Source: Parcubacteria group bacterium
GTDB taxonomy: Bacteria; Patescibacteriota; Patescibacteriia; UBA1558; GWA2-36-10
NCBI GenBank assembly: GCA_003104935.1
Contig: PQAE01000003.1
Span: 9,350 to 73,349 of the forward strand
DNA length: 64,000 bases
Reading direction: 5' to 3'
The notes under the pieces are model-generated. The model was not told the DNA's origin. It worked only from the letters and a program-made list of their open reading frames with translations, and searched no databases. Each line of letters starts with the position of its first letter. Position 1 is the first letter of the stretch. The position numbers were made by a program, and so were the translations under genes. Of this stretch, positions 56,613 through 59,426 are shown piece after piece.

Positions 56613-59426
56613 TTACAGATAAAGATTGAGGACCTCGTCTTTGACATTGAATATTCTTTGGCCAAAGAACAAGCGGAATAATTCACCCCAGGTGGAAATA
56701 TAGCGGCCCTTGCCATGTTCAATATGATAGATGTCGGGCAGACAGCCGCGCAGTAGCGAGCCGTCAGGAAACTTGGTCTTACCAAGAATATCTTTATCCC
56801 ACCACTGTTTGCCTTCGTGGCGCCAATCCAAGGTGCATTCTATCTGCTCTTGCGTTATTTTAGCACCCAAGACCTGAGGAGCGGGAGTACAGTTTGTTTT
56901 AGTGATAAAAGTCATCTCCGAGCTGGTAAAGACGCTATCGCCTACGCCCTGCATTTTGATCCGGTAATAATAAGTGGTGCCTGGTTGGAGGTTGGGCAAA
57001 GTTACAGAATGACCCGTTTTTTGCACTCCATCTTTGTATTCAAAATCATAATTGCCGCCGCTCTTTGTACCGTAGATTATCCAGGACACTGAGGCGTTGG
57101 TTGTGGTCCAGCTTATGCTAGCGTTAGTACATTGCGTACCGGCCTGAATATTATTGGCGCCGCTGATCTGGACTCCGCCACCGCCGCCACCGCCGCCAGA
57201 ACTAGAACCTCCGCCGCCGCCAGGATTATCTATAGTGCGGCAATTGGTGTTGCAAATCCTGGAGCCGTTAGGACCGGCATCGCATTCCTCGCGTCCGTTG
57301 ACTACATTGTCTCCGCAAAATTCATTGCTTTGGCAGATATTCCAACGGCAATAGAGTTCGTCACTGCCCTGAGACTGGACCGGAGGCATGTGGCAGGTCT
57401 TGGTACCGGCATAACCGGCTTCGGTAGTACAGGCCTGAGCCGGCGTATAATCACATTCCTCGCCCGCTTCTATCCGCTCATTGCCACAAACCGGCTGAGG
57501 AGGAATAATTATCATGCAAGTAGTGCTACAGACGCTGGAGCCATTGGGACCGGCATCGCATTCTTCGCGCCCGTTGACTGCATTGTCTCCGCAAAATTCT
57601 GTAGAAATACAACTATTCCAAGTGCAATATGGTTGCGGTTCGACTAAAGTCATAAGCGAATCGGTCAGCGCCATATGACAAGTCTTGGTGCCGGAATAAC
57701 CGGCCTCGGTAGTGCAGACTGTCGGCACATTGCCGTCACACTGTTCGCCCTGATCCACATGGCCGTCACCGCAATATGGTTGCGGCGCGCAATCCAGCTG
57801 AAAAGGAAATCTATCAAAACAAGCCTGTTCGGCGCTCTGTCCCTGACCCAGATACATCGCTACATAAGACAAGTCGGAGGCGTCGATATAGCCATCGCGA
57901 TTTAAATCATAAGTAGTCCAATACTTGGGAGTAGTAGAATTTGATCCCAAAGAATCGGCAATCCCCTGCTTCAAGCCGTTGCACCAGTCAATTTGCAAAT
58001 AGTTATCGCAATTGAATTGGTAATTAGGATTTTCAAATTGCTGGTGGCAGGAATTATTATCGTTAACACCTTTCCAGGCCGCCAGAGCGGCTAAATCAGA
58101 ACCATCAACAATATTATTATTATCTATATCAGGGACAGTATTGCCCGGAGCTTTCGGGCCCATCGCTTTCTCTATGATTCCCTGCAAAGCACTACACCAA
58201 GGTGAAACCGCCGGCTCCACTGGTTTTTGGCAACTAAGAGCTAAATCAGCAAAGGGCTGATAATGCTCGGCATAGCGGTCAAAACAATCTTGGCGGGCGT
58301 TTGTACCCAGATAAGCGGCTATAGCTGAAACGTCAGAGGCGTCAATAAAGCCGTCGCCCTGATGAGCCGGCCCGTTTATATCAAAGAAAGAAGAATAATT
58401 GGCGTCACCGGTTTTGGTGCCAAGGGAATCAGCAATGCCTTTTTTTAATCCGGCGCACCAATCAATACTCAAATAATTATCGCAGTTAAAACGCAAACCA
58501 TTGTCGTTAAATTGCTTTAGGCAGGTGGCGTCAGATTTATCGGCATACCACTTGGACATCTGGGAAAGATCAGAACTGTCTACACCGCCGGCGTTATCAA
58601 CGTTTGGTACCGGGGTCTCAGGCGTAGTGCCCAGAGCCGATTCTACGATGCCGTAGAGGGAACTGCACCAGGGCGACAAAGTAGTTTCTACCGGCACCGG
58701 ACAATTTAGCTCTAAGGGATACTGACTAAAACAGGCTTGACGGTTATCGCTCCCTAAATAAGCGGCCACGGCCGAAAAATCCGAAGCGTCAACCTTATTA
58801 TCGTGGTTTAAATCAAAGATAGCCGAATAACGGTTCTCGCCGGACTTTGAACCCAGAGAATCTATCACTCCCTGTTTTAAACCGGCACACCAATTAACTT
58901 GCAGATAATTTTGACAATTTACTTGCAAGCCGTCCTGCAGATCATAAAACTGTTGAAAACAATGGTCGTTTTTCCCCTCCTCATACCAATGCGTCATCTG
59001 TCCGTTGTCTTCCGAATTTACCTGACCGTTATTGTCCAGGTCGGGCACAGAAGTCTGGGCAATGGAACCCAGATGAAAATCCACTATGCCTTTAAGGGCA
59101 CTGCACCATTGGGAAAAATTCTGATCGTCGTCATTGTCGTTATCATCACCATCATGATCGTCATCACCATCATGATCATCGCTATCATCGGAGCACTTGC
59201 CTTCATAATCGCCGTGATCCAAATGAGCGGAAACGGAATTTTCATCAGTCTCAATGCCGTGATAACCGCCGTGCCCGGTGCGATGACAGATCTCAACATG
59301 TCTATTTTCCTCGTCAGCTTTGACGCTGGGCAAACCAGTAAAGTGAATAGCCAGTGCGCCCGTATTTAAGAAAAACAAAGACAGCGCCGCCAAGATAATA
59401 AAAATATGATTATATTTTTTTCTCAT
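56613..59426 (-). CDS. Giant secreted cysteine-rich repeat protein 1 (937 aa; putative adhesin)
   Basis: Signal peptide; His/Asp-rich tract (DDSDDHDGDDDHDGDDNDNDDD); four roughly 110-aa modules each with dockerin-like Ca loops (DLNHDNKVDASDFSAVAAYLG etc.) and four Cys; four Myxococcus-type Cys repeats (CGD..V..GE.CD); Gly linker; Fn3-like domain; shared C-terminal domain. Confidence 0.7.
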   Translation of the reverse strand: MRKKYNHIFIILAALSLFFLNTGALAIHFTGLPSVKADEENRHVEICHRTGHGGYHGIETDENSVSAHLDHGDYEGKCSDDSDDHDGDDDHDGDDNDNDDDQNFSQWCSALKGIVDFHLGSIAQTSVPDLDNNGQVNSEDNGQMTHWYEEGKNDHCFQQFYDLQDGLQVNCQNYLQVNWCAGLKQGVIDSLGSKSGENRYSAIFDLNHDNKVDASDFSAVAAYLGSDNRQACFSQYPLELNCPVPVETTLSPWCSSLYGIVESALGTTPETPVPNVDNAGGVDSSDLSQMSKWYADKSDATCLKQFNDNGLRFNCDNYLSIDWCAGLKKGIADSLGTKTGDANYSSFFDINGPAHQGDGFIDASDVSAIAAYLGTNARQDCFDRYAEHYQPFADLALSCQKPVEPAVSPWCSALQGIIEKAMGPKAPGNTVPDIDNNNIVDGSDLAALAAWKGVNDNNSCHQQFENPNYQFNCDNYLQIDWCNGLKQGIADSLGSNSTTPKYWTTYDLNRDGYIDASDLSYVAMYLGQGQSAEQACFDRFPFQLDCAPQPYCGDGHVDQGEQCDGNVPTVCTTEAGYSGTKTCHMALTDSLMTLVEPQPYCTWNSCISTEFCGDNAVNGREECDAGPNGSSVCSTTCMIIIPPQPVCGNERIEAGEECDYTPAQACTTEAGYAGTKTCHMPPVQSQGSDELYCRWNICQSNEFCGDNVVNGREECDAGPNGSRICNTNCRTIDNPGGGGGSSSGGGGGGGGVQISGANNIQAGTQCTNASISWTTTNASVSWIIYGTKSGGNYDFEYKDGVQKTGHSVTLPNLQPGTTYYYRIKMQGVGDSVFTSSEMTFITKTNCTPAPQVLGAKITQEQIECTLDWRHEGKQWWDKDILGKTKFPDGSLLRGCLPDIYHIEHGKGRYISTWGELFRLFFGQRIFNVKDEVLNLYL

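Follow-up and report, generated by a model that had tools for sequence, protein, structure and literature searches.

A shared C-terminal module of three Parcubacteria surface proteins belongs to a widespread repeat family and is a putative envelope anchor

Three minus-strand genes with a common C-terminal module

A window of 64,000 nucleotides from a Parcubacteria group bacterium (assembly GCA_003104935.1, contig PQAE01000003.1, positions 9,350 to 73,349; the window is the whole stretch of DNA that was analysed) encodes towards its end three neighbouring proteins, here called p1, p2 and p3, which end in the same C-terminal module. The original prediction, made from the sequence alone, had regarded this common tail either as a C-terminal sorting or anchoring signal or as a common binding head. 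The genes and the modules that they encode are listed below, with lengths in amino acids (aa).

56613-59426, minus strand: protein 1 (p1), 937 aa, translated open reading frame (ORF)
59463-61433, minus strand: protein 2 (p2), 656 aa, translated ORF, identical to PWB39000.1
61649 to beyond 64000, minus strand: protein 3 (p3), 783 aa visible, cut by the window end
56613-56771, minus strand: p1 module core, aa 886-937 plus stop, FPDGSLLRGC...GQRIFNV...LNLYL, delimited by alignment and profile
56772-56879, minus strand: N-terminal extension of the p1 module, aa 850-885, PQVLGxK...C...DxD, with the second Cys, C864
59463-59729, minus strand: p2 extended module, aa 569-656 plus stop, Cys 586 and 614; core at 59463-59621
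61649-61918, minus strand: p3 extended module, last 89 aa plus stop, two Cys; core at 61649-61813

The visible part of p3 corresponds to the C-terminal 783 aa of PWB39001.1, the full length of which is 1376 aa, and both PWB39000.1 and PWB39001.1, from an 84-kb contig of a metagenome-assembled genome, are annotated as 'hypothetical protein'. With 937, 656 and 1376 aa the proteins, initially introduced as giants, are merely large. Upon translation of the ORFs, all three C-termini carry the signature [FY]P[DE]G[ST]LLRGC ... GQRI[FY]N[VI] ... L[DN]L[FY][LI], the last residues being ...LNLYL in p1, ...LDLFL in p2 and ...LDLFIK in p3. The three copies are pairwise 43-50% identical over 60 aligned residues, with 20 invariant columns, and a three-copy profile run against all six frames of the window matched exactly three places (domain E 1e-45 to 1e-48), no fourth copy of the module being detected in this search. 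The occurrence of the same domain at the extreme C-terminus of all three proteins is thus borne out by translation as well as by the window-wide profile search.

The anticipated size of about 55 aa agrees with the module core of ~52 aa, whereas the conserved unit is longer, as it starts at P[QL]VLGxK, ~36 residues ahead of the core, and comprises ~88 aa including this extension. There are exactly two cysteines per window module, that of the 'RGC' motif and another one located in the extension. Judged from the conservation of these residues, C864 and C895 probably form a disulfide in the p1 module, and the cysteine pair found in the window sub-type hints at stapling by a disulfide, which fits an extracytoplasmic location. 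Between the copies, the proportion of synonymous differences (pS 0.65-1.0) is saturated versus a low proportion of nonsynonymous differences (pN 0.32-0.37), with a ratio of nonsynonymous to synonymous substitution rates (dN/dS) well below 1, which identifies the three copies as ancient duplicates that evolve under purifying selection. Recent duplication or gene conversion as the source of the similarity between the copies was rejected because of the saturated dS.

A repeat family with remote relatives

The module is a member of a large family without a curated model, which is widespread and often occurs in tandem. At E<=1, the last ~90 aa of p1, p2 and p3 are not matched by any Pfam or NCBIfam model. 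An exhaustive HMMER profile search of 1.84 billion representative proteins retrieved 911 proteins at a cut-off of E<=1e-3, of which 360 also passed E<=1e-10 and 24 passed E<=1e-30; in many of them more than one stretch was matched. A word-indexed homolog search returned one short match for the three-copy alignment and three for an alignment of 97 copies, and a stringent contig-level profile scan led to one locus in a Patescibacteria metagenome-assembled genome only.

Copy number and position were derived from the best 151 of the 911 proteins, which were re-scanned locally. Tandem copies (2-15) are found in 130 of the 151 proteins, with two copies in 76, three in 32 and 15 as the maximum. The last copy ends <=5 aa from the C-terminus in 111/151 proteins, while >50 aa follow it in 12/151; the C-terminal bias initially noticed on the window proteins therefore holds for the family, a pattern typical of non-covalent wall-binding repeats. 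Other positions occur as well: the member P0059 has six copies at residues 37-367 and a SpoIID domain C-terminal to them at 520-616, and in P0104 and P0149 the copies begin straight after the signal peptide. A hydrophobic N-terminal segment is present in 101 of the 140 family proteins that start with Met.

The sub-type found in the window is distinguished by 'RGC' and 'GQRIYNV', which are preceded by VLGxK...C...DxD with the upstream Cys in 37/37 copies. It constitutes the terminal domain in 20 of these 37 homologs, while in the remaining 17 another copy, belonging to the commoner sub-type, comes after it. The longest array, with 15 module copies, is carried by P0002, a protein of 1423 aa. Tandem arrays of the family were also aligned with phrog_9616, a PHROG family of unknown function with 118 positions and approximately two repeats, at E 3e-86 over seven stretches, which indicates that the same repeat is present in phage proteins.

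The fold of the module was predicted by AlphaFold2 with a four-sequence input and with a 97-sequence alignment of family copies. While the model from four sequences was mediocre (predicted local distance difference test, pLDDT, 66), the 97-sequence alignment led to a model with pLDDT 89, in which strands (E) and helices (H) succeed each other in the order E-E-E-H-E-H within ~45 residues (E15-17, E23-27, E30-34, H37-44, E49-51, H54-57). The module is accordingly predicted to be a globular alpha/beta unit of four strands and two helices. Upon comparison of both models with the PDB by Foldseek, EccB1 and EccB5 recurred as the best matches (E 1.3-3.2, query TM-score, TMq, 0.51-0.56 over 54-65 columns); the endolysin LysIME-EF1 (6IST) also recurred, weakly. 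The best matches in the BFVD were two small actinophage proteins, from Streptomyces phage LukeCage and Rhodococcus phage Weasels2 (E 7e-4 and 6e-3, TMq 0.72 and 0.71); at lower ranks, phage amidases, lysozymes and lysins of the CHAP and M23 types matched weakly.

Two known systems resemble the predicted module. EccB1's repeat domains are composed of four strands and two helices, the same elements as in the model (PMC4769845). Like the module, the repeats R1-R4 of EccB from the type VII secretion system (PF05108; 4KK7, 3X3M, 5CYU, 7NP7) are units of ~55 aa with a four-stranded sheet and two helices, which lie on the outer side of the membrane, the envelope being of single-membrane or mycolate type. 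Unlike the module, the units of which are free-standing, variable in number and combined with unrelated passengers, the four repeats of EccB follow an N-terminal transmembrane helix, alternate with a core sheet domain and are part of a secretion machine, and the sequence similarity is at the detection limit. The wall-binding domains of phage endolysins (PlyCB, 4F87; LysIME-EF1, 6IST; the C-termini of lactococcal phage amidases) are equally small alpha/beta domains, sometimes multimeric or repeated, that are located C-terminal to a hydrolase, a layout also displayed by the Amidase_2 member P0038. PlyCB binds the polyrhamnose backbone of the streptococcal wall carbohydrate (bioRxiv 10.1101/2021.03.19.436156).

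With respect to the sequence link to EccB, the EccB profile PF05108 matches 6 of the 144 scanned members, none of the stretches being significant by itself. In the three of them that were inspected, P0002, P0038 and P0059, the match comprises 63-72 residues at profile positions 178-249, approximately repeat R2. Thirteen EccB proteins were assembled for a more sensitive comparison, namely EccB1 and 12 plasmid-borne genes from Mycobacterium, Nocardia, Tsukamurella and Streptomyces retrieved via tblastn with EccB1; the EccB1 query was verified to be 100% identical to 4KK7, and eccB was not located beside plasmid esxA genes. The proteins were aligned, the repeats R1-R4 excised and each compared with the family profiles by hhalign. 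R2 gave p 1.2e-4 with a best probability of 55%, R1 and R4 each p 7e-3, and R3 nothing. Over the six comparisons with R1, R2 and R4 the p values ranged from 1e-4 to 1.5e-2, the in-register span was 26-46 columns in five and 21 columns for the full family profile versus R2, and the real score exceeded that of all 25 column-shuffled decoys in 6/6. These results are suggestive, not conclusive, of a remote homology of the module to the EccB repeats; a relation to the PlyCB-type fold is likewise putative.

A PDB sequence search with the tandem-array member P0002 gave no match. Matches of the family profiles to PDB sequences (glypican-3, CREB and the designed 'Pizza' propellers) were dismissed as chance, those to 'Pizza' having arisen via summed matches to an 18-aa hairpin.

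As a tentative extension, the module could link the extracytoplasmic repeats of EccB, phage proteins (phrog_9616 and the binding domains of lysins) and the surface proteome of the Candidate Phyla Radiation (CPR) in one superfamily, of which the window sub-type with VLGxK...C...DxD and its Cys pair would be a CPR-specific branch, possibly directed at a host-cell wall glycopolymer.

Envelope binding and its alternatives

A scan of the 144 family members against Pfam provides the functional surroundings of the module. Partners related to the cell wall are Amidase_2, SpoIID, Polysacc_deac_1 and PG_binding_1, the latter restricted to few homologs and a domain separate from the module. Amidase_2 occurs in three members of the second set and in P0038, where the catalytic domain is combined with the repeats, and SpoIID in four members and in P0059, which is named 'peptidoglycan hydrolase-like amidase' by one source. 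CAP and subtilase represent the partners from other enzyme or secreted families, while fn3/Pur_ac_phosph_N, Ig-like, PA14, beta-helix, dockerin and cohesin domains represent surface modules. This set of partners is the profile of a module common to exported wall enzymes and surface proteins.

Repeats such as LysM, SH3b, GW, CWB2, SLH and the choline-binding repeats hold exported proteins on the wall of single-membrane bacteria. Like these and PG_binding_1, the module is found on Sec-exported proteins, is C-terminally biased, varies in copy number and is common to hydrolases and adhesin-like surface proteins; unlike them, it represents a different sequence family, as none of their Pfam models matches it. 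We therefore favour, with a probability of about 0.62, the reading that the shared tail is a non-covalent envelope-binding, and thus anchoring, repeat with peptidoglycan or a wall glycopolymer as putative ligand. The module would be an autonomously folding repeat of ~55 aa with a four-stranded sheet and two helices, present here in one copy per protein, to which the window sub-type would add an N-terminal extension of ~35 aa, probably stapled by a disulfide. Upon Sec export of the three paralogous surface proteins, the C-terminal module would bind non-covalently to peptidoglycan or to an attached wall glycopolymer, so that the dockerin-like, propeller and fn3 passengers would stay tethered to the wall of the single-membrane Parcubacteria cell or of its host. 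Such tethering would require neither cleavage nor a dedicated sorting enzyme.

Several observations weigh against this reading. A wall enzyme is absent from most members, including all three window proteins, so that the argument from domain fusion rests on a minority. In the PDB, neither model found a significant Foldseek match, the structural matches to EccB and to the lysin having individual E values above 1, and PlyCB (4F87) was not among the matches. Compared with M. tuberculosis EccB1 alone, neither HMMER nor hhalign gave significance, and whole-protein Pfam scores that sum weak repeats, as for PF05108, can be spurious, as the 'Pizza' propeller case illustrates. Peptidoglycan binding by the EccB repeats is itself a hypothesis that has never been shown experimentally (PMC4769845).

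CPR bacteria are commonly episymbionts, and the module might alternatively act as an adhesin or lectin head for the host-cell surface glycans of a presumably episymbiotic bacterium. The propeller, fn3, dockerin-like and Cys-rich repeats upstream of the module are adhesin-like and would suit such a role, as would the ability of the PlyCB-type fold to bind polyrhamnose, a wall polysaccharide of the target cell (bioRxiv 10.1101/2021.03.19.436156). However, with a signal peptide and no other anchor the proteins would be left unattached to their producer, and the wide presence of the module on housekeeping-type wall enzymes suggests binding to the own wall, which makes a host-directed head unlikely.

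Protein-protein contact, by which the module would oligomerise or dock onto an S-layer or scaffold protein, with tandem copies forming a stalk, appears rather improbable. Precedents come from the possible relatives, as PlyCB assembles into octameric rings, the packing of the EccB repeats yields a rigid structural rod and both EccB repeats and LysIME-EF1 binding domains show tight packing between domains or subunits; the dockerin-like modules of the window proteins and the cohesin domains of two family members also point in this direction. The fusions to Amidase_2, SpoIID and the deacetylase, however, conform to the classic layout of a catalytic plus a wall-binding domain, and a single copy at the terminus, preceded by a flexible linker rich in Gly or Pro, resembles a tether rather than a stalk.

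A C-terminal sorting or secretion signal that is removed or covalently attached by a dedicated enzyme, as for the LPXTG, PEP-CTERM, GlyGly-CTERM/rhombosortase and type IX secretion system (T9SS) C-terminal domain (CTD) types, is highly improbable: the secreted window proteins with their extreme C-terminal module and the family-wide bias (111/151) would agree with it, but the resemblance is confined to the extreme C-terminal position in the window proteins, and the module is folded, repeated in arrays of 2-15 copies, commonly internal or N-terminal in homologs, followed by another copy in 17/37 homologs of the window sub-type and devoid of a transmembrane segment with a basic tail (highest Kyte-Doolittle value of any 19-mer within the final 80 aa 0.14-0.54). 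The original prediction had itself named internal or N-terminal occurrence in homologs as an argument against a sorting signal, and by this measure the idea fails. Moreover, the expected co-occurring processing enzyme was not found in the stretch searched: the ORFs of the 64-kb window and the 2 kb past its end include neither a sortase nor an exosortase or rhomboid-type gene. A T9SS CTD is a single, terminal beta-sandwich of ~70-100 aa, whereas the module is predicted to be a globular alpha/beta fold with four strands and two helices in ~52 aa and occurs in tandem; the T9SS also requires an outer membrane, of which none of the scanned window genes encodes a component. A lipobox or a C-terminal transmembrane anchor in the window proteins was rejected upon sequence inspection. 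From the two functions initially proposed, cleavable sorting is thus abandoned due to the tandem, internal and N-terminal copies in homologs, while anchoring or binding is retained.

Upstream architectures, genomic surroundings and meaning

The regions in front of the modules are arranged as follows.

59130-59320, minus strand: p1, His/Asp-rich stretch, aa 37-100, behind the signal peptide
57783-59129, minus strand: p1, three to four dockerin/EF-hand-like Cys repeats of ~145 aa each
57192-57782, minus strand: p1, Cys-rich DUF4215/myxo_disulf-like repeats
56892-57140, minus strand: p1, fn3-like domain, preceded by a Gly linker and followed by the module
59463-61433, minus strand: p2, signal peptide, three dockerin-like repeats, Pro-rich linker and module
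61649-64000, minus strand: p3, beta-propeller (SGL/NHL-like), DUF4215-like Cys repeats, Gly linker, fn3-like domain and module

The upstream architectures, initially taken as different, are not independent, as the three proteins are mosaic paralogs with shared blocks of 59-60% identity. Identity between p1 and p3 amounts to 59% across the last ~290 aa, which comprise the DUF4215-like Cys repeats, the Gly linker, the fn3-like domain and the module, and between p1 and p2 to 60% across a 475-aa stretch of dockerin/EF-hand-like repeats. One such repeat, 75% identical to p1, is also present near the N-terminus of full-length p3. N-terminal signal peptides are present in p1 and p2. Within their tandem array, p1, p2 and p3 exchange whole blocks, namely the dockerin-like repeats, the DUF4215-like Cys repeats plus fn3, and the propeller.

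The ~145-aa repeat, of which there are three to four in p1, three in p2 (59730-61300) and one in p3, combines conserved cysteines (SPWCSAL...NCxNYLxIDWCxGLKQG...CF) with two dockerin/EF-hand-like Ca-binding loops. Elsewhere in the family, Dockerin_1 matches are found in 16/62 members and cohesin domains in two members; together these may mean that CPR bacteria use a cohesin-dockerin-like system for assembly. The signal peptide of p1 is followed by the acidic His/Asp-rich stretch (HVEICHRTGHGGYHG...DDSDDHDGDDDHDGDDNDNDDD), which has a weak match to DUF7199 (E 0.015) and may be a metal binder.

The gene upstream of p3, past the window end, codes for a CAP-domain protein that is TSP3-like at its N-terminus, has transmembrane helices at the C-terminus and does not possess the module. 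The mosaic paralog array together with this neighbour characterizes the whole region as a surface-protein island. Other predicted surface or propeller proteins are encoded at 38740-40032 (plus strand), with PEGA and a propeller-like region, and at 18295-19512 (minus strand), Sortilin/BNR-like; neither of the two possesses the module.

The remainder of the window contains a bacterial RNase P RNA, one tRNA and the CPR-associated DUF5663, as well as a full set of rod-shape and peptidoglycan genes, for PBP2, two MreB proteins, MreC, a MurA-type enzyme, FtsEX and DivIC. Two MreB paralogs are located together with MreC, PBP2 and a small ORF at 9422-15097, a combination that indicates a machinery for rod-shape elongation as well as a wall of peptidoglycan, in line with a wall-binding role of the module. 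A cluster for glycan synthesis at 181-9416 encodes four GT4 glycosyltransferases, an initiating sugar transferase of the Bac_transf type and a DUF4012 protein, and is split at 7502-7898 by the gene for the RNase P RNA; this cluster could make a wall or surface glycopolymer and with it a candidate ligand of the module. Three large ORFs of 761, 693 and 550 aa, the first two overlapping by 55 nt, are found at 48117-54711 (minus strand). Their products are highly charged or of low complexity, with internal hydrophobic segments and no Pfam match at E<=1e-3.

No new sorting pathway is revealed by the shared tail. The module represents an uncurated family, while its functional kind, presumably that of a wall-binding-type repeat, is well known. 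If the module is a wall anchor, this would support the untested idea that the EccB repeats contact the wall. As with phage binding domains, fusions of the module to GFP offer a possible handle for cell labelling or capture. A curated model of the Pfam type would annotate at least ~900 protein clusters that are now 'hypothetical'. The display and retention of surface proteins in CPR bacteria (Patescibacteria) are poorly known, and such proteins probably mediate attachment to the host; with a recognisable anchoring module, the CPR surface proteome would become predictable from sequence.

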